Position numbers and translations under genes: made by a program. The notes under the pieces are model-generated. The model searched no databases, was not told the DNA's origin, and saw only the letters and a program-made list of their open reading frames with translations. Positions 22,719-46,595 of a DNA stretch of 64,000 bases are shown piece by piece. The stretch is from assembly GCA_025453495.1 (NCBI GenBank), contig JALOQM010000001.1:155161-219160 (forward strand). The letters are read 5' to 3'. The number at the start of each line of letters is the position of its first letter. The stretch's first letter is position 1. This DNA comes from Minisyncoccota bacterium (lineage in GTDB: Bacteria > Patescibacteriota > Minisyncoccia > Phycocordibacterales > UBA9973).

Positions 22719-25700
22719 TTATTCACTTGTGCCAGAAAGGGCATTACCAATATTTTTCAATGTCGACTTTACACCTCCTAATGCGTTTTGCAAAGGGCCT
22801 GAGAGACGAGTATCCGGGCGAACGTGTAAATCAAGACTATAGTTTGCGTCTTTCGCATAACTTACAAAATCTTTCATTTGGTTTGTGTAATTCAGACGTG
22901 CAACATTTTTAACTTCCATGAGAGATTTTTTTGAGTGATCCAATCCATCGGGTATACGATAGCTAGCAGTTCCAGTAGCGGATTCTATTCTTTCAGTATT
23001 TTTTACAATACCGCTGGCAAGTTCGCCCGCTCTTCCTTTCGCTGCATTTTCGGCAATATCACCTAATACTTTACCTTTTGGCACTTCTCCTGCGGTAACA
23101 GCGCCAAGTATTGCCATAGGATAGTTTCCTTGCTTTGCATCAGTAATAGCTTGAGAAAGTCCGTATTGGCCAACAGGCGTTGTAAGTGATTGCAAGAATG
23201 ATGTAATTTGTGGAGCATTCATTGCGATATACGCCGCAGCAAAAATAAGTTCTCCTGCAAATTTACCACTTGCATCGCTCATCGTAATCGGATTATTCCT
23301 TCCGTATGAATAGCTGTTCAGTGACTGCGGATCGCTCAGGATACTCGTCATATCCCTGCCCGACAGTGCTTTTGTCGGTTTTTCGTCACCAATAGTTAAA
23401 AATACCGGATCCTGAGAAATAAACTTCCCAACATTCCCCTTGTAGTAACGCGCATTCAAGTAATCGAGTCCTGTATCGTTGTCATGAATCTGCCCCACAT
23501 ACTTTCTCTGTTCATTATACGCCCCAGACGAGATGCGGGATTCGCCGAATGGGTAATAATCGAGTTGCTGAGAAATTGCACCTGAGGCGTCAGTGACGGC
23601 GGTAGTTGAACCGAGGTGATCGGTATGGATATAATACGGCGTCACTGTGACCGTCGGATTAGTAACAGTTTCGATCGTGGCGACAAGGGTGCTTCCTGCA
23701 TAGACTTGCTTGGTCTTCTTCGTACCGTCATCGTTGTAATACTTGTTCGGGTATGAGATGTCAGTCGTGCCTGTAACATAGCGGACGCGGTTACCTTCGT
23801 GGTCGTACCAGTAGTTTGCGGTCACTGAGCCGTCAGTACTCGAAACAAGCTGATCGCGGTAGTTCCAGGTATGCGTGAACGTGCCGTCTGACGTCAGATT
23901 GCCGTCATTGTCGTACGTGCGAGTAATACTGTTAATTTTTGTCGCAGCATGCGGATTCGCATACCCGGTGCCGGCATAGACGTATGCGCCCGCTGGACCA
24001 GAGAGCAGATTGCCGAGCGCATCGTAAGCGAATGAATGCGTGTAGTCACCGCCGCTTGCCGTGCCGGTAATGACAGCGTCAGTCAGACGATAGAGTGCGT
24101 CATATGAATACGTAGCGGTCTTTGCAGTATCAGTATCGGATGCATCATCAAGTTCGGTGATATTGCCGACCGGATCATACACATATGCGAAATCCTGCAC
24201 ATGACGGGTCGAATTCGTCGTCAAACGATTGGTTAGGCGGTAGAGCGCTGAAGCAGCATAGGTGTTCATCGTCGTCACGCCGTTCGCATCATTCTGCGTC
24301 TGGACCTGATCCGTCGGACTGTAGTCGAAGTTAGTAATGAGCGCAGTGAACGTGCGCGCAGACGGTTCCCTACGATCAACTGATTCGAGCAAACCGGCAG
24401 TATTGTAGGTGTAGCGAATCTCGGACATATCGGGATAGACGACTGAGGATATATTCCCCTGTCGATCGTAGAACGTGGACGTCGTATAGGTGTTTCCGTT
24501 GATGACCTTGATTTCGTTGACGACCGTGCCTCTCGAATTGTAGAGGTAGGATGTGTCCGCTCCGAGAAGCATGGTCACTGAGCAGAGTTTGCCCGTACCA
24601 TTCGTGCAGCTTGAGTACGAATACGCAATATCCGTGTCGGTGGTTGCAGTGTTGTCTTCCGAAGTGACCTGATTGACGTCGTTATAGGCGTAGTTTGTCG
24701 TCAGTGCGTTCGGACTTACTGTCTGAATAATGTTTCCTGCATCGTCATACGTATATGTCCATATGCCATAGGTTGCATCAGACACAGCGTGCGTGTCTTG
24801 CGCAGTCAGACGACGATCGAGGCCGTCATACGTGAAATTGCGGACGTTCCCGAGCGCATCGGTTATCTTCGTAAGTTTGCCGTTCAAATTCCATTCGTAG
24901 TTCGTGGTATAAGCGCTTGCAGTCGCATAGAATTCGTCGACAGCGGACAAGTTCTCATATGCGTCGTGATAATAACGCTTCATGTTTCCTGCTGGATCAG
25001 TGACAGTGGTCATCCAGTCGTCGTAGGCATTCGTCGTCGTACCAACTGCGTTCGTCGATGTGAGTACGCGACCAATTGGGTCATATGCGTACGTAGTGTA
25101 GAGCGCCGTAGTGGTTGTCGGTGATGTACGAGCAGTACCCGTGCTTGTATAGCGGAGTGATTCTTTCAAGGTCTTGCCGCGAGCATCATATGCCTTATCG
25201 CTCACGTTGAAAGTATTTGATGCTTCCGCTTCTTTGCGCTCCTGGATCAGGCGACCGAGGCCGTCGAAGTACTGATAGGTATCTGCCGTTGTCGAGGTGT
25301 CGAGATAGTCGGTGCGCTGTACTTTTACCGCACCGGAAGTGTCGGTATATGCATATGCCGTTTTTGCAACTGGAGAATACGGTGAAGTACTATCGGGAAT
25401 TTTTTCAGTGAGCACGCGATCAAGGCCGTCATAAACAGTTTGGTAGACGAAGCTGTTCTGATCGGTCACCTGCTTCGGCTTGCCGAGCGAGTAGTCATAG
25501 ACATACTGCGTCGTATGTGAGAGCGGGTCGGTAACAGTTGTTGGGTAGAGATTATAGGTATCGTATGAATACGAGGTTACCTTTCCACGCGGATCGGTAT
25601 CAGAAGTGACAAGACCATATGAGTTATACGCTTTCTGACTATTAATGTAGGTTGTCGACGCTTTCCAATCTTCAACCTTAGTCTGATTACCTTTGTTTAC

Positions 25701-28700
25701 CGATCCATATGAAAGCGTATCGTAATAGTATTTCGACTCTTTGACGGTGGTGGAAGATGCGTCAGTCACTGTGCTGATCTTTGGCACCACCACTCGGGTC
25801 GTCGTGTTTGCCGCATACACATTTGTCGTGGTGCGCTTGTCGGAACCGGTATCAGTGAATGAGCCGTCTGATGCCACTGCATTTACCCTACCCCATTCGG
25901 TCTTCGTCAGGAGCGAGCCGTCCGTGTTGTCATAGGTATATTCGGTCGCAGTATCGGCATGATCTGAATCGCCATCATACGTCAGCACAGTCTGGCGCGC
26001 GAGCTTCACGAAATCGTGGTCAGTGCCGATGTTGTAGTGATCCCACTTATTGACCGTCAGGCGATAGAGATTGTTCGAGCTGTCACGTTCTTCGACACGG
26101 TACGGCTGACCTATTTTTGCAGGGATATCGTTGTATTCACCGTTTGATGTATCAGTGCCATTACCCTGGTGGTAAAAGGTCTTCGTGACATTGCCGACTT
26201 CATCGGTTGTCGTGACGATATTGAAGCCAGCGAGCGTTCTATGTCCGTCTGAGTAGTACTGATACTTGCCGTCCTGATACGAGTACTGTCTCGTTCCGGT
26301 CGTGCCGAATGCGTCGTTCGTCGTGATGTCTTTGACGACTGTTATGGACTGGGACGGACTTCGGGTTATCGGATTCTTGTCATTAATAGGCTGTTCCTTA
26401 TATGTAATGGACATCGAGCCGCCCGCAGGAGCAGTAATGGTTGAAAGATAATCGGATTTTGAACCGGTATTGAGCCAGACGGCATTTGGGTTCGTGATGT
26501 TTGTACTGTTGTTATAGGCAAATATCCAGTCTGGTAGTCCGTCGTTATTTAGATCAGAAAGTCTTGTGTCATAATCAAATCCTACCTGATTTCCATTTGG
26601 ATAGGTTGGCATGGTCCAGCTTGCAAGTAGCCAACCTGTCCCAGTACTAAGCCAAACCTTGTTAGGATTGATAGTGTTTGTGTTGTTGTTATAAGCATTT
26701 ATCCAATCTGGCAGATTATCTCCATTAATATCTGTAAGCTGGGTATCGTAGGCAAATCCGACATGATTACCATTTGTGTATGTAGGCATGGTCCAAGAAA
26801 CTGCTGTCCACCCAATTCCTGTATTCAGCCAGACAGTATTTGGACTGGCTGCTGTTGGGGAATTGTTGTCATATCCATGAATAAAGTCAACAAGACCATC
26901 GGCGTTTACGTCAATAAGTTTGTTCGTATAATGAAATCCAACCTGATTGCCTGTTAGATAAGTCGGCATCGTCCAACTTGCTGATGTCCAGCCAGAGCCG
27001 GTATTCAACCATACTGCATTCGGATTCGTGGTACTCGTATTATTATTAAAGGCATAAATAAAATCTGGAAGAATATCTCCGTTTATATCCACGAGTTGCG
27101 TGTTTGTATGAAACCCGACCTGATTGCCGCTTGGATATAGCGGCATGTTCCACGATGCGTTCGACCAGCCCGATCCAGTGTTAAGCCAGACCGTATTTGG
27201 GTTTACTGTGCTTGTATTGTTGTTGTAAGCATAGATCCAGTCAGGTAAACCATCTCCATTGAGATCGATCAACTGCGTATTTACTGTATGAAAACCTACC
27301 TGGTTACCACTTGGATAAGTCGGTATAGTCCATGATGCTGATGACCAACCCGATCCATTATTGAGCCAGACCGCATTCGGATTCGCGGTGCTTGTATTGT
27401 TATTATAAGCATAGATCCAATCGGGTAGACCATCGCCATTGAGATCAATCAACTGGGTATTCAAAGTATGAAAGCCCACTTGCCCGCCAGTTGGAAATGT
27501 CGGAAACGTCCATGACGCGAGCGACCAGCCAGATCCGGTATTAAGCCACACAGCGTTTGGATTCGTGGTGCTCGTATTGTTATTGAGCGCATACACGAAG
27601 TCCGGCAAATTATCACCGTTTACATCCACAAGCTGCGTTGCGGAAGCGAACCCTACTTGTCGGAGGTCCGGATAGACAGGCATCGTCCATGACGCGAGCG
27701 ACCATTCATCATCCACAGTCTGATAATCGAATGACATCGCCGGGAGTACCGTCGGCGTGCCGCTTTCGTCATAACCCGTTTCGGTAATTGAAGAAAGGAG
27801 CGAACGATTCTGGTTGTGTCCAGGTAGGTATACAAGGTCGTACTTGCGAGTATTTGTACCGTTAATTTTTGCAACAATGCTCGTAACAAGCGAAGCCGGA
27901 GCGACTGAGAAAGCAGGATTATAGACAGTCACGACATCGGGGCGCGAGCCTAACGTAAAGTCGATTTCGAAAATTCCGTCAGTGGTTCCAAAACCAGTGT
28001 AAAAAATCTTCGATGGATAAATCTGCCCTGCGCTTTTGGTATATTCATAGCGGACGAAGTTATCATTCGTATCGCGCGTCTCTTCAAGCATCCACTTATA
28101 GATATTTCCCGAGTTGTCTTGGCGAGCTTGGGCGTTTGCACCGAAGGTATATTTCACACCCTTTTTATCGGTTACCACCCATCCGTTGGAGACGCGTTCG
28201 TATCGCAAGAAATCTCCCTTTTCAGAACGAGGTGCGTAAAGATTTGATCCGAGCGGAACAAGCTCCCCAGAGAGAGATGACGAAAACACATCGCCTGTCG
28301 TATAGAGGTCTTCCGTACCGGTGCGATTGACGCGCTCGATGTATGGAATATTGACGGACCAGCCGTAGCCGACGACAGAGTCGTTAACTTGATTCTCGCT
28401 ATTGTACATAAGCGAGAGATCAGGCGTCATGTCATTTCTGCCTGGTGGAACCTGAATCTTGTAGGTATGGACGAATGCCCCTGTCAGGTTGTCGATTTCA
28501 GGAGAAAGCAATCCTTTTGAATCCTGCGGCGGAAGCGGATCAGGATCTACTTCTGGCGCTTGAGGGGCTGGCGGCTCTATCGGCGGAGCTGCTTGCTGGT
28601 TTTCTTCAGAAACCTGAGTTTCAGTTTCTTCGCTAACGGTTGGCGTCTCAGTCTGTACTTCTGGCTCAGGAGTTATAACAGTTTCCTGAGTTGCTTCCGT

Positions 28701-28847
28701 ATTCGCTGTTTCTTCAGCGAATACGGTCAGGACAGGAGAAAAAAAGATTGAAAATACAAGAACGCATACCGCCAGCTTCCTAAAAAGACCGGATGCTGAT
28801 AATGGGTTTTTTGCGATATGCATATATTGTTTTTCTTGTTTTAACAA
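22719..28847 (-). CDS. Giant secreted SpvB-domain / FG-GAP beta-propeller / RHS (YD-repeat) polymorphic toxin (Tc-toxin TcB-TcC-like fusion) with a variable C-terminal tip
   Basis: 2042 aa. Signal peptide, then a Pro/Glu-rich linker, then an SpvB-like region (...GYGWSVNIPYIERVNRTGTEDLYTTGDVF...). About eight repeats of VDxNGDxLPDxxYAYNNNTSTxNPNAVWLNTGSGW (FG-GAP-like). Many YD repeats (YTYDALGN, YAYDPIGR, FTYDGLDRR, YTYDDAGN...). An RHS-core-like DYYPFGESR...YYKGNVGKFISQDP...NNPITMSDASGKF. A C-terminal domain of about 200 aa containing IPDGLDH...EVKNV, a possible PD-(D/E)xK motif. Confidence 0.85.
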   Translation of the reverse strand: MLKQEKQYMHIAKNPLSASGLFRKLAVCVLVFSIFFSPVLTVFAEETANTEATQETVITPEPEVQTETPTVSEETETQVSEENQQAAPPIEPPAPQAPEVDPDPLPPQDSKGLLSPEIDNLTGAFVHTYKIQVPPGRNDMTPDLSLMYNSENQVNDSVVGYGWSVNIPYIERVNRTGTEDLYTTGDVFSSSLSGELVPLGSNLYAPRSEKGDFLRYERVSNGWVVTDKKGVKYTFGANAQARQDNSGNIYKWMLEETRDTNDNFVRYEYTKSAGQIYPSKIFYTGFGTTDGIFEIDFTLGSRPDVVTVYNPAFSVAPASLVTSIVAKINGTNTRKYDLVYLPGHNQNRSLLSSITETGYDESGTPTVLPAMSFDYQTVDDEWSLASWTMPVYPDLRQVGFASATQLVDVNGDNLPDFVYALNNNTSTTNPNAVWLNTGSGWSLASWTFPTFPTGGQVGFHTLNTQLIDLNGDGLPDWIYAYNNNTSTANPNAVWLNNGSGWSSASWTIPTYPSGNQVGFHTVNTQLIDLNGDGLPDWIYAYNNNTSTVNPNTVWLNTGSGWSNASWNMPLYPSGNQVGFHTNTQLVDINGDILPDFIYAFNNNTSTTNPNAVWLNTGSGWTSASWTMPTYLTGNQVGFHYTNKLIDVNADGLVDFIHGYDNNSPTAASPNTVWLNTGIGWTAVSWTMPTYTNGNHVGFAYDTQLTDINGDNLPDWINAYNNNTNTINPNKVWLSTGTGWLLASWTMPTYPNGNQVGFDYDTRLSDLNNDGLPDWIFAYNNSTNITNPNAVWLNTGSKSDYLSTITAPAGGSMSITYKEQPINDKNPITRSPSQSITVVKDITTNDAFGTTGTRQYSYQDGKYQYYSDGHRTLAGFNIVTTTDEVGNVTKTFYHQGNGTDTSNGEYNDIPAKIGQPYRVEERDSSNNLYRLTVNKWDHYNIGTDHDFVKLARQTVLTYDGDSDHADTATEYTYDNTDGSLLTKTEWGRVNAVASDGSFTDTGSDKRTTTNVYAANTTTRVVVPKISTVTDASSTTVKESKYYYDTLSYGSVNKGNQTKVEDWKASTTYINSQKAYNSYGLVTSDTDPRGKVTSYSYDTYNLYPTTVTDPLSHTTQYVYDYSLGKPKQVTDQNSFVYQTVYDGLDRVLTEKIPDSTSPYSPVAKTAYAYTDTSGAVKVQRTDYLDTSTTADTYQYFDGLGRLIQERKEAEASNTFNVSDKAYDARGKTLKESLRYTSTGTARTSPTTTTALYTTYAYDPIGRVLTSTNAVGTTTNAYDDWMTTVTDPAGNMKRYYHDAYENLSAVDEFYATASAYTTNYEWNLNGKLTKITDALGNVRNFTYDGLDRRLTAQDTHAVSDATYGIWTYTYDDAGNIIQTVSPNALTTNYAYNDVNQVTSEDNTATTDTDIAYSYSSCTNGTGKLCSVTMLLGADTSYLYNSRGTVVNEIKVINGNTYTTSTFYDRQGNISSVVYPDMSEIRYTYNTAGLLESVDRREPSARTFTALITNFDYSPTDQVQTQNDANGVTTMNTYAASALYRLTNRLTTNSTRHVQDFAYVYDPVGNITELDDASDTDTAKTATYSYDALYRLTDAVITGTASGGDYTHSFAYDALGNLLSGPAGAYVYAGTGYANPHAATKINSITRTYDNDGNLTSDGTFTHTWNYRDQLVSSTDGSVTANYWYDHEGNRVRYVTGTTDISYPNKYYNDDGTKKTKQVYAGSTLVATIETVTNPTVTVTPYYIHTDHLGSTTAVTDASGAISQQLDYYPFGESRISSGAYNEQRKYVGQIHDNDTGLDYLNARYYKGNVGKFISQDPVFLTIGDEKPTKALSGRDMTSILSDPQSLNSYSYGRNNPITMSDASGKFAGELIFAAAYIAMNAPQITSFLQSLTTPVGQYGLSQAITDAKQGNYPMAILGAVTAGEVPKGKVLGDIAENAAKGRAGELASGIVKNTERIESATGTASYRIPDGLDHSKKSLMEVKNVARLNYTNQMKDFVSYAKDANYSLDLHVRPDTRLSGPLQNALGGVKSTLKNIGNALSGTSE

Positions 28848-31060: not shown

Positions 31061-31945
31061 TTATATTCCCAAATCACCAAGGGCATCCTCCAGTAAAGGA
31101 ATGATGTCTTTGAAATACACCCTTAACTTTTTTAGGTCGTTAGCGCCATTTGCTCTTCTTTTAATATTTTCCCATTCTTTACGTAGTAAGTACTCATCTC
31201 CAGATAGATTGGTGAGGTTAAAAGACATCTTATCTATGATGTAACTTTTTTCTATTTTCTTATTTAGAAATATTACAGGATAATTTGAATCATCCCAGAA
31301 AAGGAGTTCGTAGGCTGTCGCCACCCCTTTCGAGCCGTTTACTCCCATAACAACTTCAGACCCCTGCGCAAAAAATCTATGTTCAAAATCCTCCCACATT
31401 GCTGGGGTAAATGATTTTGAATCCATTTCTTGCAAGAGTACATTTTCTATAAAGGATGAGAGAGTTTGATAAGCAAAAGTCACTAGTTTTTCGTCTCTTT
31501 TATCATCGGGATTTTTATCTGCGTGAAATAGATTATTTCTGACTTCATACCAGAACTCCACAACATTCATAAAGTCATTCTCGTCAGCAATTTTACCTTG
31601 ATTATCTAGACCGGCTCTGTGATGATAACTCGCATTATTCCACCAACCATTTCCAGTTGTCATCGGTTCTCTTTGTAGGTAGTTGATGAGGTCTATCAAT
31701 CTTTCTTTGTAATCTGGCTCACCATTTATAAAAGCAGTCCATCTTGCTTGATATGTCTCATCGTTTTTGAAATGTTGTATATACGAGCGTTCTTTTGTAT
31801 TCCCAGAAGCTACCTCGATGTCTTGTTTGGAATATTTATATTTTTTCAAAAAAGCTTCAAAGGCGAGATACTCAAAAACATATCGAGAAAAATAATCTTC
31901 TTTCGCCTTTTCGTGCCAATTTCTTATAAGGGAGATATCTGTCAT
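31061..31945 (-). CDS. HEPN-like (Rx4H) domain protein, possible Abi-type defence protein
   Basis: Probable start MTDISLIRNWHEK; ...EVRNNLFHADKN... matches the HEPN R-x4-H motif; AT-rich. Confidence 0.4.
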   Translation of the reverse strand: MTDISLIRNWHEKAKEDYFSRYVFEYLAFEAFLKKYKYSKQDIEVASGNTKERSYIQHFKNDETYQARWTAFINGEPDYKERLIDLINYLQREPMTTGNGWWNNASYHHRAGLDNQGKIADENDFMNVVEFWYEVRNNLFHADKNPDDKRDEKLVTFAYQTLSSFIENVLLQEMDSKSFTPAMWEDFEHRFFAQGSEVVMGVNGSKGVATAYELLFWDDSNYPVIFLNKKIEKSYIIDKMSFNLTNLSGDEYLLRKEWENIKRRANGANDLKKLRVYFKDIIPLLEDALGDLGI

Positions 31946-32169
31946 GTAAGTTGATCGCTTTAAGCATTCGCAAGGCAACTATATCATGCGTAGACAGGAC
32001 TAAAAAGACGATGGAATTTCTTGATTTTTAGGCATTTCGGTTACCAACAGCTACCACTCGGGACGCTCTGGACTCCTAAAAGGCATTGCGTCATTCATGT
32101 AGGTGTATGAACTATACACAAACACAAGCGCCATTAGGGACGACGGCCAAAGTAGTCGTTCCAATCAAA

Positions 32170-33438
32170 ATGAAATACTGCCTTTATGCGAGAAAGTCGA
32201 CAGAGTCGGAAGAGCGGCAGGTACTCAGTATCGACAGTCAAATCAAGGAGATGCTCCAATTAGCAGAGCGCGAAGGACTTGAGATCGTGACGATGAAGCG
32301 CGAAAGCCACTCTGCCAAGGAAACAGGCCAGCGGCCGGTCTTCAACGAGATAATACAGGAACTACATCAAGGAAAGTTCAACGGTATCCTGACATGGGCA
32401 CCAGATCGCATAAGCAGAAATGCTGGCGACCTGGGCAAGATCGTCGACCTCATGGATGCAGGAAAATTACACCAGATACGCACCTTCGGACAGACGTTCG
32501 GCAACAATCCAAATGAGAAATTCCTGCTCATGATTTTAGGCTCGCAGGCCAAGCTCGAAAACGACAACCGAGGCATTAATGTCAAACGTGGGCTGCGAAC
32601 CCGGGTAGAGATGGGCTTATGGCCGGGCATGGCACCGCTCGGCTACCTAAATCAGAAGATGCTCGACAGGAAGTGCCAGATCGCCGTCGATCCCGACCGC
32701 GCCCCGATCGTTCGCAAAATGTTCGAAAAAGTAGCATATGAAGGATGGAGTGGACGGAAGGTCTACAACTGGCTTAGATTTGATCTGAACTTCCATACCA
32801 GAGGCAACAGGCCGCTGACGCTCTCGGGAGTGTATCGAATATTCAATATGCCAATCTATTACGGACCATTTGAATACCCGAGAGACTCCGGCAATTGGTA
32901 CGACGGCAAGCATGAGCCGATCATAACTAAGGAGTTATATGAAAAAGCGCAGGAACAGCTCAAACGTGACAAGATCGTCCGAGAGAATCGAGAGTTTGCA
33001 TTCACTAAGCTATTTACCTGCGGTATGTGTGGCTCAGGCATATCGGCACAGGAGAAATACAAGGAACTGAAAGATGGCACGAATGCCAAGTACGTCTACT
33101 ACTCATGCTCGAAAGCGCGAGACCGAAACTGCAAAAACAAGTATATTCGTGAGGAAGAACTGATCGAGGAGCTACTTAAGATCATCGACAAACTAAACAT
33201 TAATGAATTAGGGATGAGAATGAAGCTTGAGGAGGAAATCAAGCGATTCAATAGACTTCAGAGGCTTGCAACGAAAGGAACGCCCAAGTACAACATCAAC
33301 GAAGATGACGTGAATACAAGAGAGTATGCCAAGTATGTGCTACGAGAAGGAACGCCACTTGAGAAGCGAGAGTTGATGGGTCATCTGAGGAGTAGACTGT
33401 TGCTGAAGGACAAGAAGATTACGCTACTTGATCAATAA
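32170..33438 (+). CDS. Large serine recombinase (resolvase/invertase N-domain, recombinase domain and zinc ribbon)
   Basis: Internal start MKYCLYARKSTESEERQ (catalytic Ser region); ...RISRN...; GINVKRGLRTRVEMG; Cys cluster CGMCGS...YYSCSK; C-terminal coiled coil. Upstream 32050-32075 carries TACCACTCGGGACGC. Confidence 0.85.
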   Translation: MKYCLYARKSTESEERQVLSIDSQIKEMLQLAEREGLEIVTMKRESHSAKETGQRPVFNEIIQELHQGKFNGILTWAPDRISRNAGDLGKIVDLMDAGKLHQIRTFGQTFGNNPNEKFLLMILGSQAKLENDNRGINVKRGLRTRVEMGLWPGMAPLGYLNQKMLDRKCQIAVDPDRAPIVRKMFEKVAYEGWSGRKVYNWLRFDLNFHTRGNRPLTLSGVYRIFNMPIYYGPFEYPRDSGNWYDGKHEPIITKELYEKAQEQLKRDKIVRENREFAFTKLFTCGMCGSGISAQEKYKELKDGTNAKYVYYSCSKARDRNCKNKYIREEELIEELLKIIDKLNINELGMRMKLEEEIKRFNRLQRLATKGTPKYNINEDDVNTREYAKYVLREGTPLEKRELMGHLRSRLLLKDKKITLLDQ

Positions 33439-34420
33439 AATAAGCTTTAAACTCATCCGAGTAGAAGGTAAATTCATTGTAGCTCTCAGCAAACTTTTTA
33501 TTTGTAACATACACGTCCATTGGTTGAGCGTTTGTGTCTATAACAACACAATTAGCTTGATTATTTGTAATAAATGGGAGCTTTCTGCTGTTCCATGCAT
33601 CATATGCAAGGTGTTCTGAATCCGCATTACCAAAGAGTGTAAGCTTGGGCTTAAGCACATCAAGAAAATCATATGACCTGTCTGATTTTCGTCCATGGTG
33701 AGGAGCGATAAGTACGTCAATATCTTTTACATCATCACTATGGTTTTTGAGAATATGATCCCATGTTTTATCGTGGGAATCTCCAGCAAGAAGAATTTTG
33801 CCACCCTTTGAACGGTACAAGATGACATAGGAAGAATCATTATAATCCTCTGCGTCATTTCCTTCTTCAACCAACTTCTTAGTCGGAGATAGGATATATA
33901 ATCCGTCGCCACCACCTTTGCCATTCTCATCATGATTATAATGATGACCTCTTGACCCAGAATAAAGAACGAGTCGTCGAGGGTCACTTTGCGGGTTTTC
34001 ATCACGCATCTTCTTGTAAAACTCCCAATCTTCTGGATCATAAGGGCTACCTTCTTCAAATTCCTTTTCGCATGTATTGTCTGTATCCCAAAAGTTCTGA
34101 GGTTTAAAAATATCAAATAAGACCTTGATCCCTGACATATGATCCATGTCGGGGTGTGTCAAAATAAATCTAAAAACTTTATCCACGCCAAATTCCTTTA
34201 AGTATCTTATTGGATTTACGGGCAATGACTTCTGATTGAAATTACCAGAAACACTTAGTGTTTCAACAACTGCCTCTCTAACGATTTTTTTGAGCTCGTA
34301 GTTCTTTTCATCAGCAATTGCGCTACCGTTACAGATATCGAAAACACTTACATGTCCTGAGGGGTGTTGAATAATCGAGCAATCACCATTCTTAACATTT
34401 AAAAAGTGAAATACTCCCAT
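33419..34420 (-). CDS. Metallo-beta-lactamase-fold protein of the ComEC/Rec2 C-terminal-domain type
   Basis: 333 aa; N-terminal ...FLNVKNGDCSIIQHPSG...; THPDMDHMSG (HxHxDH-like) and LIAPHHGRKSD are typical of ComEC-type metallo-beta-lactamase domains. Confidence 0.6.
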   Translation of the reverse strand: MGVFHFLNVKNGDCSIIQHPSGHVSVFDICNGSAIADEKNYELKKIVREAVVETLSVSGNFNQKSLPVNPIRYLKEFGVDKVFRFILTHPDMDHMSGIKVLFDIFKPQNFWDTDNTCEKEFEEGSPYDPEDWEFYKKMRDENPQSDPRRLVLYSGSRGHHYNHDENGKGGGDGLYILSPTKKLVEEGNDAEDYNDSSYVILYRSKGGKILLAGDSHDKTWDHILKNHSDDVKDIDVLIAPHHGRKSDRSYDFLDVLKPKLTLFGNADSEHLAYDAWNSRKLPFITNNQANCVVIDTNAQPMDVYVTNKKFAESYNEFTFYSDEFKAYFIDQVA

Positions 34421-34425
34421 AGTTT

Positions 34426-35121
34426 TTATTTACCTACATATTCTTGAAAAAGAGAGCGAGCGTATCTCTTTCCGTGATTATGAATTAGTTTTTTATTCAA
34501 AAGCATCAGGAACAGATACGCCAGTGCCATGGCAAGTGAAAGATAGTATGCCGCATGGATGTCTTTAACTAGAGAGAATACAAACATGTTTATAATAGAG
34601 ACAAATACAGAAATAACCGAACATCCGATCAAGTTTCTTATAAACCCGTATTCAATATTTCTCGACAGCAATAGTCGACCATCTTTCAGCGAATGACGAA
34701 TAAGCGTTACTGCTTCAGCAATCGCTTTTCTTGCCTCGGTTTCGTTTCGGATCTCTTCATCGGGAATAAAAATTTGGATGTTATAGTCAACCTTTATTTT
34801 GTCATGAATTTTTTGCTTGAATTGTAGCGTGTACTCACTGTTAGAATGTAAGAGAAAATCTGTTGTGGGCATTCTAGTCTCATCTCGACTAAACCAAGTT
34901 GACTCATAGAGGTCTTTACCTATAGATCTTCCAATAAATGAAAGTAGTATTAGAAAGACAACGGGGGTGGATATGTCGCCGACCCAGCTCACTCCAAAAA
35001 TTAGTTTGAAGAAACCAGACAAATGGTCGTTGAGGAAAAAGAAATAAAGAACTAGAAAAGGAAAGGATGCGAGTATTGCAGGAAGGATTCTTGCCTGAAT
35101 TGTATATTGGTTGAGTTTCAT
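34426..35121 (-). CDS. Hypothetical polytopic membrane protein (231 aa)
   Basis: Two N-terminal and two C-terminal TM segments; lies between the two metallo-beta-lactamase-fold genes with 3-5-nt gaps. Confidence 0.4.
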   Translation of the reverse strand: MKLNQYTIQARILPAILASFPFLVLYFFFLNDHLSGFFKLIFGVSWVGDISTPVVFLILLSFIGRSIGKDLYESTWFSRDETRMPTTDFLLHSNSEYTLQFKQKIHDKIKVDYNIQIFIPDEEIRNETEARKAIAEAVTLIRHSLKDGRLLLSRNIEYGFIRNLIGCSVISVFVSIINMFVFSLVKDIHAAYYLSLAMALAYLFLMLLNKKLIHNHGKRYARSLFQEYVGK

Positions 35122-35123
35122 AT

Positions 35124-36179
35124 TTATTCTTCTACATAATCATGGAATGGCTCCTGTACTGCAGGACCCCATCCTTGTCGGGTGGGAGCGAGATGTGGAT
35201 GACAAAGCGTCATATTTTTAGTTACATATACAAGTGCGCCATACTTTTTGAGTCCGTTGATGACCTTCTTCGATGGGTGTTTATCTGAGTTTTGAGGCGC
35301 AGAAATCGAAGCTATTACTCCGTTTATCCTTTTGAGAACTTTACTACTCATATTTCGCTTACTGCCATGATGAGGAACATCGAGCAGATTTAGTCCTGTG
35401 AGAACTATACCCTTGGTGTCTGCGTAGTCTGCAGCCAGATGGAGTGCCGTTTTACCTGCATCTCCAGTGAAAAGGATCTTATGTCCGTCTATGTTCAAAA
35501 AGACAATTGCACTTGAATTATTTTCTGCGGAGGTTGAATCCGTGTCATCATCAAGAAGATCGATGTGGATAAAATCCTGAATTTTCTTTGCAACGGTCTC
35601 GATCGCTCTTACAGCGGGCGCTAAAAATCCCAAGGCGGCAACAGGCTCTGGGGTAGAACGGAAATGAGCAAGAAGACCCTGATAATATTCCTTCGATGGA
35701 CCAAGTACGTGCAGTGCATCATTGAATCCAGTAACACCCTGAAACGGTTCAACGATTTGGACACCTTTCTTCTTTGCAATTGCCTCAAGATCACTCGCAT
35801 GTTGCAGAGCTTTTTCCAATTTATCACTCAAGCCAGAGGATGTGATACGCCCGTTAACGAAATGCTTTTTAATATCTTCTGCATGTTCCCATGGCCTGTG
35901 CATAGCTAGAGTAGTTACATTGAGTTTTTCTAGGACAACAGTGAGTCCAGACGCGTGATCGGCATCAGGATGGGTACAGAATACAACGTCGACAATTTCT
36001 GTGCCGTAGTATGTTTTGATGTGATTAACAAGTGTCTCTCCAGACTCTTTTGTTCCTCCGTCGATTACGATAACAGTTTGCTCTGTTCTTGGGCCTGTCA
36101 GGTTTCCGAAGCGAAGTGCGATAGCGTCGCCTCCTTTTTCTCCTTCTCCTACAGGAATGTAGTCAATTTCATAAGCCAT
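35124..36179 (-). CDS. Metallo-beta-lactamase-fold protein of the ComEC/Rec2 C-terminal-domain type (paralogue of 33419..34420)
   Basis: 351 aa; VIDGGTKESGE...VDVVFCTHPDADHASGL...LLDVPHHGSKRNMSS. Confidence 0.6.
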   Translation of the reverse strand: MAYEIDYIPVGEGEKGGDAIALRFGNLTGPRTEQTVIVIDGGTKESGETLVNHIKTYYGTEIVDVVFCTHPDADHASGLTVVLEKLNVTTLAMHRPWEHAEDIKKHFVNGRITSSGLSDKLEKALQHASDLEAIAKKKGVQIVEPFQGVTGFNDALHVLGPSKEYYQGLLAHFRSTPEPVAALGFLAPAVRAIETVAKKIQDFIHIDLLDDDTDSTSAENNSSAIVFLNIDGHKILFTGDAGKTALHLAADYADTKGIVLTGLNLLDVPHHGSKRNMSSKVLKRINGVIASISAPQNSDKHPSKKVINGLKKYGALVYVTKNMTLCHPHLAPTRQGWGPAVQEPFHDYVEE

Positions 36180-36191
36180 ATAAAGTTAGTG

Positions 36192-36812
36192 CTAAAATTT
36201 TGGTAATACTGACACGACAACTCCTTGGATATGAAAATCATCCGTAAGAATTATTGGCTGATGAGTGGGGTTTGTCGATTTTGGCTTCAGCATTACAAAA
36301 TCACCTTGAGGATGATACTCCTTAACGGTAGCGTCATCATCTATAAGAGCTACGACTTTTTGACCAGGATCAGCTGAGGACTGTTGCTTCACCAGAAGCA
36401 AGTCTCCGTCGTTGATGCCAGCTTTATTCATAGAGTCGCCATTTGCACGAAGTAGGAAGTACTTTGATCCTGGCTTCACCATACTTACAGAAACTGGGAT
36501 CATAGCTTCGACATTTTCTTCGGCAAGCATAGGCGCGCCACAGGATACACTTCCAATCAAGGGAAGCGAGATGGTTCGGGCCACGATACCTTCTCTTAGG
36601 TCTTTAATGAACTGAAGGGTGCCGTCGGTCTTTTTCTTTAGAAATCCTCCAGACTCAAGTTCTTCGAGAAGCAACATCGCTGATCGAGGAGACTTATAAT
36701 CCAAAGCATCCATCAGCTTTCTGACAGAGGGAACCTTTCCGAAATGCATCACGTTGTTGCGGATGAACTTCAGGGCTTCACGTGCTTTTTGGCTTAACTC
36801 TTTGTCACTCAT
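36192..36812 (-). CDS. lexA: LexA-type repressor (wHTH plus S24 peptidase)
   Basis: 206 aa; C-terminal GDSM (Ser nucleophile) and a downstream Lys (VKEYHP); N-terminal HTH. Confidence 0.8.
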   Translation of the reverse strand: MSDKELSQKAREALKFIRNNVMHFGKVPSVRKLMDALDYKSPRSAMLLLEELESGGFLKKKTDGTLQFIKDLREGIVARTISLPLIGSVSCGAPMLAEENVEAMIPVSVSMVKPGSKYFLLRANGDSMNKAGINDGDLLLVKQQSSADPGQKVVALIDDDATVKEYHPQGDFVMLKPKSTNPTHQPIILTDDFHIQGVVVSVLPKF

Positions 36813-36830
36813 GATACAAAGTGTATCATA
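36811..36830. promoter_or_regulatory. Perfect 7-3-7 palindrome TGATACA-AAG-TGTATCA overlapping the lexA start codon (candidate LexA box)
   Basis: Seen directly; TTGACT (-35-like) about 35 nt upstream on the coding strand. Confidence 0.4.
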
Positions 36831-36960
36831 CTGTATACTTAAAAGTCAATAACGTAAAAGAGCGACACTGATCGCTCTTTTTGCTACAACCATGAAGCCT
36901 TGTGGGTCGCGCTACCTCCTTAGGCAGTCGGGATACAAAACTAACAGGTTGTCAATGCGG

Positions 36961-37048
36961 AGGAGGTGAGATTCGAACTCACGGACCACGTAAATGGTCT
37001 CCTGTTTTCAAGACAGGTGCCTTCAACCACTCAGCCACTCCTCCGTAT
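36961..37048 (-). tRNA. tRNA-Ser (anticodon TGA), class II with long variable arm
   Basis: Minus strand GGAGGAGTGGCTGAGTGGTTGAAGGCACCTGTCTTGAAAACAGGAGACCATTTACGTGGTCCGTGAGTTCGAATCTCACCTCCTCCG. Confidence 0.85.
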
Positions 37049-43104: not shown

Positions 43105-43473
43105 ATGGATATAGAACTTACAAAGAAAAAATGCCAGCCGTGTGAAAAGAAGGGGAGTAAGCCATTTGATCAAGTAGAAGCCGAGCGATATGTCGCCGAA
43201 GTCCCTGGATGGGAACTCTCTCAAGTGCATTCAGAAGGACAGGCTACACCTGTCTTGAAAATTTCTCGGACATTCGAATTCAAAGATTTCATTGGCTCGA
43301 TGGATTTTATAAATGCAGTTGCTGATATTGCTGAAGCCGAAGGACACCATCCAGATATATACATTTTTTATAACAAAGTGCGACTTGAATTATATACACA
43401 TGCGATCGACGGATTGTCGGAGAATGATTTCATTGTTGCGGCAAAGATACATAGGATCATGCAGTTTCACTAG
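43105..43473 (+). CDS. Pterin-4a-carbinolamine dehydratase (PCD/DCoH)-like protein
   Basis: ...EAEGHHPDIYIFYNKVRLELYTHAIDGLS... matches the PCD signature (E-x3-HHP...Y...H-x3-GLS). Confidence 0.65.
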   Translation: MDIELTKKKCQPCEKKGSKPFDQVEAERYVAEVPGWELSQVHSEGQATPVLKISRTFEFKDFIGSMDFINAVADIAEAEGHHPDIYIFYNKVRLELYTHAIDGLSENDFIVAAKIHRIMQFH

Positions 43474-43522
43474 ACTTTACTTGCGTATTTGCTATAACTA
43501 AAACGTCTTTTTAAGACGATAT

Positions 43523-43595
43523 GGTGCCTATAGTGTAATGGTTAGCACTGGAGTCTGTGGATCTCCCAGTTCGGGTTCAAATCCCGATAGGCACC
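43523..43595 (+). tRNA. tRNA-His (anticodon GTG) with encoded G-1
   Basis: G-GTGCCTATAGTGTAATGGTTAGCACTGGAGTCTGTGGATCTCCCAGTTCGGGTTCAAATCCCGATAGGCAC-C; G-1 opposite discriminator C. Confidence 0.8.
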
Positions 43596-43679
43596 CACGA
43601 GTCAGCAGCCGGTTTTGCGACCGACACGGCTGAAATAGGTAGAGTTTTGGTTCTCGACCGCTTAGGGTAATTTATCAAA

Positions 43680-44318
43680 ATGGAACAATCAATCATCGAG
43701 TATCTTAAAGAAAAATATTCGCCTAGAGCCATTATTCTTGCTGGATCACGTGCAATAGGAAAGGAAACAGAAGACAGTGATTGGGATATATTTGTTTTTG
43801 CTGAAAAAGATTATCCCGACGGTTATTTTGTTTGGAATAATCAGCTGCTCGACATAACAATTCATAGCTGGCCGAAACCCGACAATTGGGTTTTTACGAT
43901 TCCGTTTGGTCCGCTTTGGCCAGTTAAAGTTCTGTATGACGATACTCAAGGAGTATTTGATCAGATACTCAAACGCACTAAAGATGTGTATGAACTTGGT
44001 CCACTTGTAACCTATTCTAATGGGTGTCGAGAACGTCTTGATAAGTTAGAGCGTTGGAAAGGCAAAATTGGAAAATACAAAACTAATTCCGAAGTTCAAT
44101 TTTATTACGCCGGGATTATTTTTGAGTTTGCTATCCGTGTATGGTTCGAACAGCAGAATATATGGCCACTTACTCCTTCGCTTGCAGTTCCGTACATCCG
44201 GGAGAAAGACTCTAAATTTGCTGACATGATCAGTTCTTTTGTAAATCAGAAAGGCGAGAGTCTGGTTCTTCTCACTAATGAAATTGTGAACCATCTGCGG
44301 TCTCTCAGAAAAGAATAA
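43680..44318 (+). CDS. Nucleotidyltransferase (KNTase / minimal nucleotidyltransferase-like) protein
   Basis: ...LAGSRAIGKETEDSDWDIFVF... matches the GS-x9-13-DxD signature of pol-beta-type nucleotidyltransferases; 212 aa with a helical C-terminal domain. Confidence 0.55.
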   Translation: MEQSIIEYLKEKYSPRAIILAGSRAIGKETEDSDWDIFVFAEKDYPDGYFVWNNQLLDITIHSWPKPDNWVFTIPFGPLWPVKVLYDDTQGVFDQILKRTKDVYELGPLVTYSNGCRERLDKLERWKGKIGKYKTNSEVQFYYAGIIFEFAIRVWFEQQNIWPLTPSLAVPYIREKDSKFADMISSFVNQKGESLVLLTNEIVNHLRSLRKE

Positions 44319-44320
44319 CC

Positions 44321-44728
44321 ATGAATTCGATTGCCCATGTAGAAATCAATGTCAGAAATCTAAGAATATCGACTTCATTCTGGTCTGATTTTCTCGCTAC
44401 TCTTGGTTGGAAACAGTTCGATGTCGGCCATTCTTCGGTTTCCGGTTTTGAAGCCCCTGATGGAACACATTTGTTTCTTGTTCAAACAGAGGAGCGTTTC
44501 TTAAGCTCAGGTTTTCATCGAAAGAATATTGGCCTGAATCATGTCGCGTTCAGAGTAGACGCTCCAGAAAAAGTGGATGCATTTGCTGATTTCTTAAAAG
44601 AGAAAAGTATCCCGGTTCTGTATGGAGGTCCAAAAGAGTATTCGTCTGAATACAGCAGGGAACACTACTACGCAGTTTTCTTTGAAGATCCGGATCGGAT
44701 TAAAGTCGAGGTTGTTTTCTATAAGTAA
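44321..44728 (+). CDS. Glyoxalase/bleomycin-resistance/VOC family protein
   Basis: 135 aa; MNSIAHVEINVRNL...GLNHVAFRVD...YAVFFEDPDRIKVEVVF are paired beta-alpha-beta-beta-beta modules. Confidence 0.6.
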   Translation: MNSIAHVEINVRNLRISTSFWSDFLATLGWKQFDVGHSSVSGFEAPDGTHLFLVQTEERFLSSGFHRKNIGLNHVAFRVDAPEKVDAFADFLKEKSIPVLYGGPKEYSSEYSREHYYAVFFEDPDRIKVEVVFYK

Positions 44729-44729
44729 A

Positions 44730-45005
44730 TTAATCTGCCAAGGTAATTTTCTTTTCGGTCACCAATAATTTGTTTCTTAAGTTTTCCAAAAGTTCTCGCT
44801 TCTCGTGGATTGTGCCTTCTTTCAGTAGGTACTTCGCATACATCCGAATATCAACTTCTTTCTCCTTCAGTTTCTTCTCGTCTTTGATTCTAAACACGCT
44901 TGATCGTAATTTATTGTGTCTTGCCCCAAGTTGATTAAAATGTAACGTGCTCTCCTTTAAGGGCCAGAAAAGCCTGTATTTACAGGATGGTTTATTTGTA
45001 TCCAA
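44730..45005 (-). pseudogene. Remnant of a serine recombinase gene (C-terminal about 40 aa retained)
   Basis: C-terminus [38 protein letters not shown] aligns with the C-terminus of the 32170..33438 recombinase ([39 protein letters not shown]); no catalytic domain upstream. Confidence 0.5.
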
Positions 45006-45095
45006 GGTTTAACCTTAGAATGTATGCTTTTTAAGTAATGTAATTATTTATTAATAAACACTGATCTTTATCTTCAGTACGTTATACTTATCTTT

Positions 45096-46595
45096 ATGAA
45101 ACCGATTGATGAACTAAAAAGGCGTTTGCTTGAGATAGCGCATCTCTCTTCTGCACTTGCACTCTTACACTGGGATCAGGAAGTCCATATGCCAAAAAAG
45201 GGTGGTGCGTCCCGAGCACTCGTGATTGCAGAGCTGACTGGTCTTATCCATCAGAAGCTTGTCGCGCTTGATGTTGATCGCGTGCTGACTAAGCTCCAGC
45301 TAGCAGTAAAAAAGGGAACACTCAAAGGAAAAGACAAAGTCATTGTCCTTGAGACGGCACGTACTTTTGAACGAGAGCGGAAACTCCCTGAGGCTTTTGT
45401 GCGCGACATGGCAGAAACAATATCCAAAGCACAATCGGTATGGGCTACCGCTCGAGCACAAAACAATTTCACCTTGTTCCGTCCATGGCTTGAAAAGATA
45501 GTTGCGCTCAAGCGAAAAGAAGCGACATACGTTGGCTACCGTGCATCACCGTATGATGCACTGCTTGATGCATTTGAACCCGACATGACCACACAAGAGG
45601 CAGCACGTATACTGCATGATCTCAAAGATTTTCTCGTGTCATTTCTCAAAGAACTTCAGAGTCGTCCTCAAGCTGCGAAACAACGTCTTTCTCTAAAAGC
45701 TACATTTCCAATTGCAGAGCAAAAAAAGTTCAATGCAGTGCTCGCAAGTGAAATCGGATTTGATCTTGCTGCTGGTGTGATTGAGGAGAGTACGCATCCG
45801 TTTACGACAAATTTCCATCCGCATGATGTGCGTTTCACGACGCGGTATCGTACCGACGATATTATACACGCCATTGGTTCGACTATACATGAGGCGGGAC
45901 ACGGTCTCTATGAGCAAGGTCTTCCAGCGGAGCATTTTGGTACACCACTTGCAGAGGCGGTATCGCTCGGTGTTCATGAATCACAGTCACGTATGTGGGA
46001 AAATATGATTGGCAAGAGTAAGCCATTCTGGAGGTATTTTTATCCGAAGCTCAAAAAGCAATTTCCAGAAGCATTTGGGAAGATTACACTAGAAGATTTT
46101 TATCATGCGATCAACCGCGTCACGCCATCACTTATCCGCACTGAAGCAGATGAAGTCACGTACAACTTGCACATTATCATCCGCTTTGAAATCGAAAAGG
46201 AGCTTATCGAAGGGAGTATTGCTGTCCGTGACGTTCCTCTGATCTGGCAATCAAAAGTCAAAGAATATCTCGGAATCTCCGTGAAGGACGACGCGCATGG
46301 AGCGCTTCAGGACGTCCACTGGTCTGCGGGGCTCTTTGGGTATTTCCCGACGTATACATTTGGCAATCTCTATGCAGCACAGTTCTTTGCGGCTATGGAG
46401 CGAGAGCTTCCTGTAACAGCGCTTCTTGCAAAGGGTACATTTGGTCCAGTGCGCGAGTGGCTTAGGAAGCATATCCATTCACATGGAAAGCGCTATACCG
46501 CCGGAGCACTTGTGAAAAAAGTGACAGGTGAACCTCTCAATAGTCGTTACTTTGCTGACTATTTAAAGAAAAAATATAGAGACATTAAAAAGTAA
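45096..46595 (+). CDS. M32 family carboxypeptidase (Taq carboxypeptidase-like)
   Basis: 499 aa; HEAGHGLYEQG (HExxH) and a downstream HESQS; M32 layout. Confidence 0.8.
   Translation: MKPIDELKRRLLEIAHLSSALALLHWDQEVHMPKKGGASRALVIAELTGLIHQKLVALDVDRVLTKLQLAVKKGTLKGKDKVIVLETARTFERERKLPEAFVRDMAETISKAQSVWATARAQNNFTLFRPWLEKIVALKRKEATYVGYRASPYDALLDAFEPDMTTQEAARILHDLKDFLVSFLKELQSRPQAAKQRLSLKATFPIAEQKKFNAVLASEIGFDLAAGVIEESTHPFTTNFHPHDVRFTTRYRTDDIIHAIGSTIHEAGHGLYEQGLPAEHFGTPLAEAVSLGVHESQSRMWENMIGKSKPFWRYFYPKLKKQFPEAFGKITLEDFYHAINRVTPSLIRTEADEVTYNLHIIIRFEIEKELIEGSIAVRDVPLIWQSKVKEYLGISVKDDAHGALQDVHWSAGLFGYFPTYTFGNLYAAQFFAAMERELPVTALLAKGTFGPVREWLRKHIHSHGKRYTAGALVKKVTGEPLNSRYFADYLKKKYRDIKK

Follow-up and report, generated by a model that had tools for sequence, protein, structure and literature searches.

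Does the small group of genes that follows a tRNA-His gene of a Minisyncoccota bacterium represent the remains of a mobile element, and if so, what kind of recombinase had mobilised it? The locus is part of a stretch of 64,000 nucleotides (contig JALOQM010000001.1, positions 155,161 to 219,160), referred to here as the window, and it consists of a nucleotidyltransferase (NTase) gene and a VOC/glyoxalase gene, both on the strand of the tRNA, followed on the opposite strand by a 91-codon open reading frame (ORF). A preliminary description of this DNA had proposed that the ORF aligns with the C-terminus of a recombinase encoded elsewhere in the window and that the islet is the scar of an earlier integration event at a tRNA gene, brought about by that recombinase family. 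The results presented here point in the same direction: the region encompassing nucleotides 43597 to 45095 can with good confidence be considered the tRNA-proximal stub of a decayed integrative element that owed its mobility to large serine recombinases (LSRs) of a clade found in Patescibacteria. Direct support is provided by the homology of the ORF to the LSR, its truncation, the recurrence of the architecture at other loci and with an intact LSR paralogue at a tRNA-Ser gene of the window, the directional linkage of the LSR family to tRNA genes, the positional motif GACC found next to these tRNAs, and the presence or absence of cargo in a syntenic relative. The islet as such is an ordinary grounded mobile-element stub of a known kind, a product of ordinary genome decay; the unusual part is the linkage of a Patescibacteria LSR clade to tRNA genes and the recurrent survival of the recombinase tail.

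The 91-amino-acid product of the ORF was compared with that of the 450-amino-acid LSR ORF (32086-33438; LSR residue numbers are counted from the TTG at 32086, although the likely start is the ATG at 32170). BLASTP gave an E value of 1e-14 with 41% identity over 80 amino acids, corresponding to LSR residues 370-449, and the final 41 amino acids of the shorter protein show 61% identity to the LSR C-terminus, which confirms the alignment reported in the preliminary description. The Smith-Waterman score of the pair was 140, while 2000 shuffles gave 35.2 ± 5.7 with a maximum of 69 (z = 18.5). At the DNA level the match was marginal, with a local score of 33 vs a shuffle maximum of 32, and identity across the codon-aligned block is 60%, with 39% at third positions. 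The comparison to shuffled controls suggested earlier had thus a clear outcome for the protein and a borderline one for the DNA. Because the DNA match is this weak and the third positions this dissimilar, the remnant is, judged from its sequence, an old and diverged member of the LSR family rather than a recent copy of the intact gene.

The homology to the recombinase is confined to codons 21-91 of the ORF, starting at about nucleotide 44945. LSR similarity is absent in every frame of the adjoining segment 44946-45095, and nothing from the LSR upstream of residue ~370 was found in any frame at 44700-45200 or in the rest of the window, the intact paralogue aside; a tblastn search with the whole recombinase detected no other LSR fragments in the window. 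In the 91-amino-acid ORF no Pfam match was obtained for the catalytic domain, the Recombinase domain (PF07508) or the zinc ribbon (PF13408). The 71-codon tail that is left is incapable of recombining DNA, and therefore the islet is fixed in place. As a database query the remnant retrieved 13 proteins, each of them short. The closest relatives are 63-86% identical, some retain the zinc ribbon, and relative to them the remnant carries an in-frame deletion of nine codons (IIDREIERH). A 13-sequence alignment of tails has nine invariant columns, among which is a YAK motif. The AlphaFold2 (AF2) model of the remnant is of low confidence (mean pLDDT 59, with the N-terminal 48 residues below 50), too low for a fold search. 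Two other arrangements were considered and rejected. A split integrase whose 5' half would lie at the other end of an insert is contradicted by the lack of an N-terminal LSR fragment elsewhere in the window, and an attP within the recombinase ORF at the conserved YAKYLLKEG motif is contradicted by the synonymous sites of that motif, which are freely substituted.

The succession of tRNA-His, variable same-strand cargo and 5'-truncated LSR tail recurs in three further metagenomic locus types. Between the tRNA and the tail, the first of these (L028) has no cargo, only a terminator hairpin, the second (L029/L030) has the gene for a Shedu nuclease (SduA), and the third (L023/L024/L025) has a gene coding for a 334-amino-acid protein. 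The same tail-plus-cargo layout is present in L031/L032, where the cargo is a PD-Lambda-3-like protein, and in L033, where it is uncharacterised; in both cases the contig ends ahead of any tRNA. The tails of all these loci are on the strand opposite the cargo and end within a few bases of the cargo end. Their recombinase-like parts start at different LSR residues (291, 326, 337, 346, ~370 in the window, and 381, or 404 by tblastn), so that the tails form a nested series in which no two 5' truncation points coincide, and the native stop codon is retained in every tail. The longer remnants of L029 and L033 keep part of the zinc ribbon. In the comparative analysis of the locus that had been recommended in the preliminary description, L028 proved to be a relative that is syntenic with the window through the genes for a pseudouridine synthase, ribosomal protein L19 and Pterin_4a, the tRNA-His, the junction that follows it and the remnant, with 70-90% nucleotide identity, and which lacks the NTase and VOC genes. 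Beyond the remnant its flank is not homologous, a DEAD-box helicase gene being found in place of the M32 carboxypeptidase gene. In L023 and L029 the tRNA-side flank is as in the window and the cargo is different. Because the syntenic L028 lacks the NTase and VOC genes, these are, on this comparison, best described as the variable content of a slot that extends from the tRNA junction to the stop codon of the recombinase.

The intact LSR of the window has the same layout at a tRNA-Ser gene. There the cargo lies on the tRNA strand and ends against the LSR stop codon, with a LexA-like S24 repressor gene adjoining tRNA-Ser; the two metallo-β-lactamase (MBL)-fold proteins match the PADLOC candidate defence system PDC-M48B (1e-34 and 2e-86). 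The best solved relative of this LSR is SPbeta YokA/SprA (3e-12), and its best NCBIfam match is CcrB, far below the cut-off. The region 31061-37044 also holds a gene for a 305-amino-acid HEPN-like protein with a weak DzbB match, the LSR there has no frameshift, and this region may be a still-mobile defence island. A giant ORF of 2042 amino acids (22719-28847, minus strand) is located a few kb from the LSR island.

When IMG/VR was scanned with an alignment of full-length LSR relatives, 69 loci at 45-87% identity were obtained. The density of tRNA genes is 22-fold higher downstream of the LSR than upstream, 0.88 vs 0.04 per 10 kb (23 in 260 kb vs 2 in 498 kb). At each of the 18 loci with a downstream tRNA the first one is convergent, that is, on the opposite strand, at a distance of 120 nt to 5.6 kb; the specificities are Ser, Asp, Gln, Glu, Arg, Trp and Asn. 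The closest IMG/VR relatives of the window LSR (72-78% identical) all adjoin tRNA-Ser(TGA). Locus L026 has an LSR gene and CBASS cargo at tRNA-Met in the layout seen in the window. Defence genes are abundant around the LSRs and include type I restriction-modification (R-M), CBASS, Shedu, PDC-M48B and PD-Lambda-3; superfamily 1 (SF1) helicase genes are found as well.

The sequence of ~65 nt that follows tRNA-His is conserved in the window and in L028, L029/L030 and L056 despite their different host flanks. It includes GGTTTTGCGACCGACAC (43611-43627), and the tetranucleotide GACC lies 23 nt past the end of the tRNA. GACC was found at +18 to +24 after 14 of 24 LSR-linked tRNAs (eight specificities) and after one of 21 control tRNAs, which were the remaining tRNAs of this data set (Fisher p = 1.3e-4). 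Between its tRNA-His and tRNA-Ser junctions the window has only GCGACC[G/C]ACA..GGCT in common, at an E value of ~1. In L079 a related junction lies beside an LSR with CBASS cargo and no intact tRNA, and ahead of it there is a degenerate copy, ~35 nt long, of the 3' end of tRNA-Ser, which is what an element-borne attP would look like. From these sequences we infer that the junction would be the element-derived half of attL, with the crossover at or near the tRNA 3' end. No partial copy of tRNA-His or att-type direct repeat is present in 43400-45300 or elsewhere in the window, and no direct repeat of the tRNA end was found within 10 kb at 19 LSR-tRNA loci with a full-length LSR. Serine recombinases require only a 2-bp overlap, so the missing repeat is expected and not diagnostic; the search for a partial tRNA-His duplication downstream, which the preliminary description had put forward, is not a valid test for a serine integrase.

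An 18-mer of the junction gave 34 matches in metagenome contigs, of which 33 were chance matches in unrelated genes and only L056 was real, and no matches in viral contigs. The junction was also considered as a structured RNA, and this was rejected as no Rfam family was matched and folding was no better than that of shuffles in three of the four copies. Nucleotides 1-1210 of L056, a Hainich groundwater contig, are syntenic with 43105-43670 of the window and include an intact tRNA-His, followed by 130 nt, a 19-nt direct copy of the tRNA 3' end (AAATCCCGATAGGTACCCA), the conserved junction and a different cargo ORF. Such an arrangement suggests that this tRNA was the site of a second insertion, probably of the tyrosine-integrase type, which left a scar.

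In full-length members of the clade, the tRNA 3' end is followed by a junction of ~65 nt, with GACC ~20 nt past the tRNA, and by zero to several accessory genes on the tRNA strand, often with anti-phage defence functions. The LSR gene comes next on the opposite strand, ending flush against the cargo, and further genes, again often for defence, lie on its 5' side. At tRNA-His a deletion would have taken the first ~370 LSR codons, and with them the catalytic serine, recombinase and zinc-ribbon domains, as well as all that lay beyond the LSR, the second attachment site among it. In this reading the NTase and VOC genes are the accessory cargo of the element. Deletion is the simplest reading of the origin of the remnant. 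The tRNA-His gene is the anchor of the islet and its presumed attachment-site gene. The coordinates are listed in Table 1.

Table 1. Location of the tRNA-His islet, the intact LSR island and their components in the window.
Feature	Coordinates	Strand	Evidence or content
tRNA-His(GTG)	43524-43596	+	ARAGORN; Rfam tRNA, 59 bits
Post-tRNA junction	43597-43665	+	Conserved in L028, L029/L030 and L056
NTase, cargo gene 1, 212 amino acids	43680-44318	+	Pfam Polbeta and NTP_transf_2, above cut-offs
VOC/glyoxalase, cargo gene 2, 135 amino acids	44321-44728	+	Pfam Glyoxalase PF00903, 38.5 bits
91-codon ORF holding the recombinase tail	45005-44730	-	C-terminal match to the LSR at 32170-33438
LSR 3' remnant, 71 codons and native stop	44730-44945	-	BLASTP; equals LSR residues 370-449
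Truncation junction	44946-45095	-	20 non-homologous codons, then 90 nt of AT-rich spacer
Intact paralogous LSR	32170-33438	+	Pfam Resolvase, Recombinase and Zn_ribbon_recom
tRNA-Ser(TGA)	36957-37044	-	tRNA of the island 33419-37044
tRNA-Ser island cargo, four genes	33419-37044	-	LexA-like repressor, MBL-fold PDC-M48B-like protein, 231-amino-acid protein, second MBL-fold protein

The genes around the islet are ordinary ones, coding for ribosomal protein L19, pterin-4a-carbinolamine dehydratase (Pterin_4a) and, farther on, the M32 carboxypeptidase, whose divergent gene is reached by the AT-rich spacer of the truncation junction. An attempt to establish synteny in reference genomes through the M32 carboxypeptidase gene was abandoned, as the best relatives are ~60% identical and tRNA-His is not nearby. 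A scan of the islet found no sigma-70-like promoter, a result that is uninformative for this phylum.

ARAGORN and Pfam bore out the identification, made in the preliminary description, of a tRNA-His followed by NTase and VOC genes. The VOC gene begins 3 nt after the NTase stop codon, and the two probably form one transcription unit downstream of tRNA-His. The NTase had been described as KNTase-like with a GS..DxD motif, which agrees with our results: G22-S23 and D34-x-D36 (GS...DxD) are invariant in 23 homologues, and the AF2 model (pLDDT 95) has a pol-beta-type NTase domain and a C-terminal helical domain. The best PDB matches of the model are to ANT(4') (6un8/6nmk), with Foldseek TM scores up to 0.72 and 13-15% identity; LinB comes next, then, more weakly, Hailong HalB and AadA, all at 11-16% identity. 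Like ANT(4')-Ia and ANT(4')-IIb, the NTase has a pol-beta domain followed by a helical bundle, with GS...DxD; it differs from them in size (212 vs ~253 amino acids), in its low identity and in matching no resistance-family model. Generic NTase models match only its N-terminal 60 residues. No resistance or toxin-antitoxin model was reached, the only NCBIfam match being MntA (29 bits vs a cut-off of 60), and a phmmer search against PDB gave nothing below E = 0.1. An MNT-HEPN (type VII) toxin-antitoxin system was rejected, as MntA is below its cut-off, the neighbour is a VOC and not a HEPN protein, and the NTase has an extra helical domain of 150 amino acids. Homologues of the NTase with 41-62% identity are single genes in varied Patescibacteria contexts, one of them between dnaJ and a tRNA synthetase gene, and in the two contexts examined (homologues 54-62% identical) no VOC gene is adjacent, so that the NTase-VOC pairing is not conserved. 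In L070 (5858-6648), tRNA-Ser(TGA) has as its first downstream gene a homologue with 54% identity, and DUF87/TraG-like genes are present in the region. Because this homologue, too, directly follows a tRNA, the observation suggests that the NTase family is a recurrent cargo of tRNA-linked elements.

The VOC protein is single-domain, matches PF00903 over residues 4-131 (38.5 bits vs a cut-off of 20.6) and has as its best solved relative 3ct8, a structural-genomics 'putative glyoxalase' (4e-25). Its family is broad and uncharacterised, with 1364 homologues. When compared with the fosfomycin resistance models FosA/FosB it scored 17-23 bits vs NCBIfam cut-offs of 171-305, and it has no match in PADLOC. 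From the slot that the two genes occupy, a defence or detoxification role is plausible for the cargo.

Further observations concern the tails and the LSR genes at other loci. The profile search recovered 1168 tail homologues; seven of the best 150 are of full LSR length (425-564 amino acids) and the rest mostly have 75-250 amino acids. There are many divergent LSR-tail ORFs of ~90-96 amino acids (below 50% mutual identity), P0107, P0126, P0150, P0151 and P0161 among them, with the typical start 'MREE(E/D)L...' and carried by Patescibacteria contigs 17-114 kb long. That they were called at a uniform length may be due to the gene caller or may reflect a form that really recurs. Nucleotides 600-1050 of L072 and 631-1100 of L024, both from one aquifer well, are 100% identical over 323 nt, which include the upstream flank and the first 73 remnant codons, and then diverge abruptly; in L072 a terminator is found directly after the stop codon of the remnant. 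This mosaic represents either homologous exchange of tail plus cargo or a chimera, L072 being at 1x coverage.

Full-length LSR genes with interruptions were also found. L142 is a full-length member of the subclade of the remnant, broken by one extra C in a C-run (C7), and L027 is a full-length LSR broken by an extra A. In L142 (1360-1480), L027 (800-930) and L026 (7880-8030) the LSR is split into two ORFs by changes in homopolymer length (C7; A4 or A5); these could be pseudogenes, sequencing errors or, speculatively, phase-variable switches. Programmed frameshifting was considered, since in both L142 and L027 the split lies close to the boundary between recombinase domain and zinc ribbon, but the shift sites differ and are plain homopolymers, and the frameshifts of L142 and L027 are regarded as ordinary mutations or sequencing errors. 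Two LSR genes each are present on the 'viral' contigs 3300014208_000734 (L075 and L107), 3300000970_000154, 3300014205_009253, 3300042286_000458, 3300032737_000190 and 3300009873_002614. On 3300014208_000734 one LSR lies beside tRNA-Ser(TGA) and the other beside tRNA-Arg(GCG); in L073 (9914-12578) two LSR genes are arranged tail to tail, 38 nt apart. The two-LSR contigs may be defence islands rather than prophages, because they are flanked by type I R-M, CBASS and helicase genes and not by clear phage structural genes.

Several observations weigh against the interpretation of the islet as the stub of a decayed LSR element. Its G+C content is 0.399 vs 0.430 for the window, the 18th percentile of equal-size windows, and does not set it apart as foreign. 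Neither an attL/attR pair nor an empty site nor an excised form was found, so that integration at the tRNA is deduced from context only. Provirus calling in IMG/VR may enrich edges made of an integrase plus a tRNA, although this would not yield the orientation rule or the motif. Each of the six copies of the tRNA-His type is truncated, and searches of 5.8 billion proteins and of IMG/VR yielded no intact representative of the tRNA-His subclade, only the frameshifted L142; the nearest intact relative in IMG/VR is no closer than 54%. The six remnant frames are open to the native stop codon, with pairwise nonsynonymous divergence (dN) of 0.07-0.19 and saturated synonymous sites (dS), and the window and L028 remnants share 83% amino acid and 75% nucleotide identity, a conservation comparable to that of the flanking core genes (67-92%). 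The open frames and the conservation would also fit selection on the stub itself. According to this alternative the LSR tail would be a retained, selected small ORF or a domesticated coiled-coil module, kept as 5'-truncated stubs at tRNA-linked defence slots across Patescibacteria. The coiled-coil and tail of an LSR normally control synapsis, and through them the stub might block integration or excision by related elements; or it might be a fixed DNA homology arm for cargo exchange beside the tRNA. The lack of an intact tRNA-His-subclade member, the short length of most homologues among the best 150 of 1168, several of ~90 amino acids lying on long Patescibacteria contigs, and the abrupt divergence inside the remnant of L072 and L024, which resembles a recombination breakpoint, are also in its favour. 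We nevertheless consider selection on the stub unlikely, in any of these forms. No two truncation points agree, a conserved start codon or ribosome-binding site is missing, the window remnant has its internal nine-codon deletion and a low AF2 confidence, and the frameshifted full-length relatives form a decay series. In L031 ~48 conserved LSR codons precede any possible start, and their conservation therefore does not come from translation of the stub. A low dN/dS can predate truncation, going back to the time spent on mobile elements, short contigs may have contributed many of the short homologues as fragments, the 'MREE...' start can result from gene calling at a conserved I/L/V codon, and L072 may be chimeric. 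Survivorship can explain the conserved stubs: active elements come and go, those immobilised with useful cargo persist, and the conservation of the stub can then date from the mobile phase.

The other alternatives concern the cargo, the mode of arrival and the homology itself. The NTase and VOC genes could be a functional cassette and as such the purpose of the islet, either for antibiotic resistance, with an aminoglycoside/lincosamide adenylyltransferase and a fosfomycin/bleomycin VOC protein, or as a new anti-phage pair. The structural matches to ANT(4'), LinB, AadA and the defence enzyme HalB, the conserved GS...DxD, the spacing of 3 nt, the defence systems that occupy the same slot in related loci and weak matches to PADLOC PDC-S09 and Fos models speak for such a cassette, but it is improbable given that the pairing is not conserved, the identity to ANT(4') is 13-15%, the Fos and MntA models are below their cut-offs, the former far below, and the VOC protein belongs to a broad uncharacterised family and lacks a PADLOC match. 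The proposal of the preliminary description that the NTase is potentially drug-modifying is unsupported on the same account, and its homologues are found among housekeeping genes as well. Delivery of the islet by another mechanism, for instance a tyrosine-integrase element at the tRNA-His 3' end, with the LSR fragment as a passenger or older neighbour, is very unlikely. The 19-nt copy in L056 is a classic tyrosine-integrase signature and other elements use tRNA-His, but the window islet has neither a tyrosine integrase nor a direct repeat, its cargo occupies precisely the position, from the junction to the LSR stop codon, that cargo has in full-length LSR loci, and the junction bears the LSR-family motif. 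That the ORF is spurious and resembles the LSR by chance or through low complexity can practically be dismissed: the DNA match is marginal and the region is rich in lysine and glutamate, but none of the 2000 shuffles came near the observed protein score, homologues of 63-86% identity exist, some with a zinc ribbon, and the profile search recovers full-length LSRs.

As the stub of an LSR element, the islet resembles the grounded prophages and islets known at tRNA genes in its location directly 3' of the tRNA, in the reduction of the integrase to a fragment and in the accessory genes kept between integrase and attachment site, with a cargo that varies among relatives. In the classical cases there is a tyrosine integrase and a repeat of the tRNA 3' end, whereas the islet has an LSR and no repeat. 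tRNA genes are the classic sites of tyrosine integrases, and the known large serine integrases target mostly protein-coding or intergenic sites. The window LSR shares the three domains and the C-terminal tail with large serine integrases such as those of phiC31, Bxb1 and A118/LI, SPbeta SprA (YokA) and SCCmec CcrA/B; the Patescibacteria clade differs from them in being systematically beside tRNA genes, and its att sites are putative here. According to a survey of integrative elements, tRNA genes are used by 44.5% of tyrosine integrases and by only 14 of 297 serine integrases; the survey described the latter use as previously unreported, predicted and in need of experimental proof (PMC7192596). 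The filamentous phage phiRSM of Ralstonia solanacearum has a serine recombinase with an attP/attB core that is the 3' end of tRNA-Ser (PMC3816273). The phiRSM Int is of the small resolvase/invertase type, without recombinase and zinc-ribbon domains, and has an identical core of 13 nt, whereas the LSRs described here have ~420-450 amino acids and no detectable core repeat. For bacteria of the Candidate Phyla Radiation (CPR), a literature search gave no paper that deals with serine recombinases at tRNA genes.

These results account for a small accessory locus as the immobilised remainder of a mobile element, and they caution against reading its NTase and VOC genes as resistance genes. They also describe a Patescibacteria clade of compact LSRs that lie tail to tail with many different tRNA genes, with a positional motif and a slot for defence genes between them. 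If confirmed, this clade would represent a tRNA-specific branch of the serine integrases, possibly useful as integration tools with conserved target sites, and would provide a main route for the ultra-small CPR genomes to gain, and then fix, defence genes.

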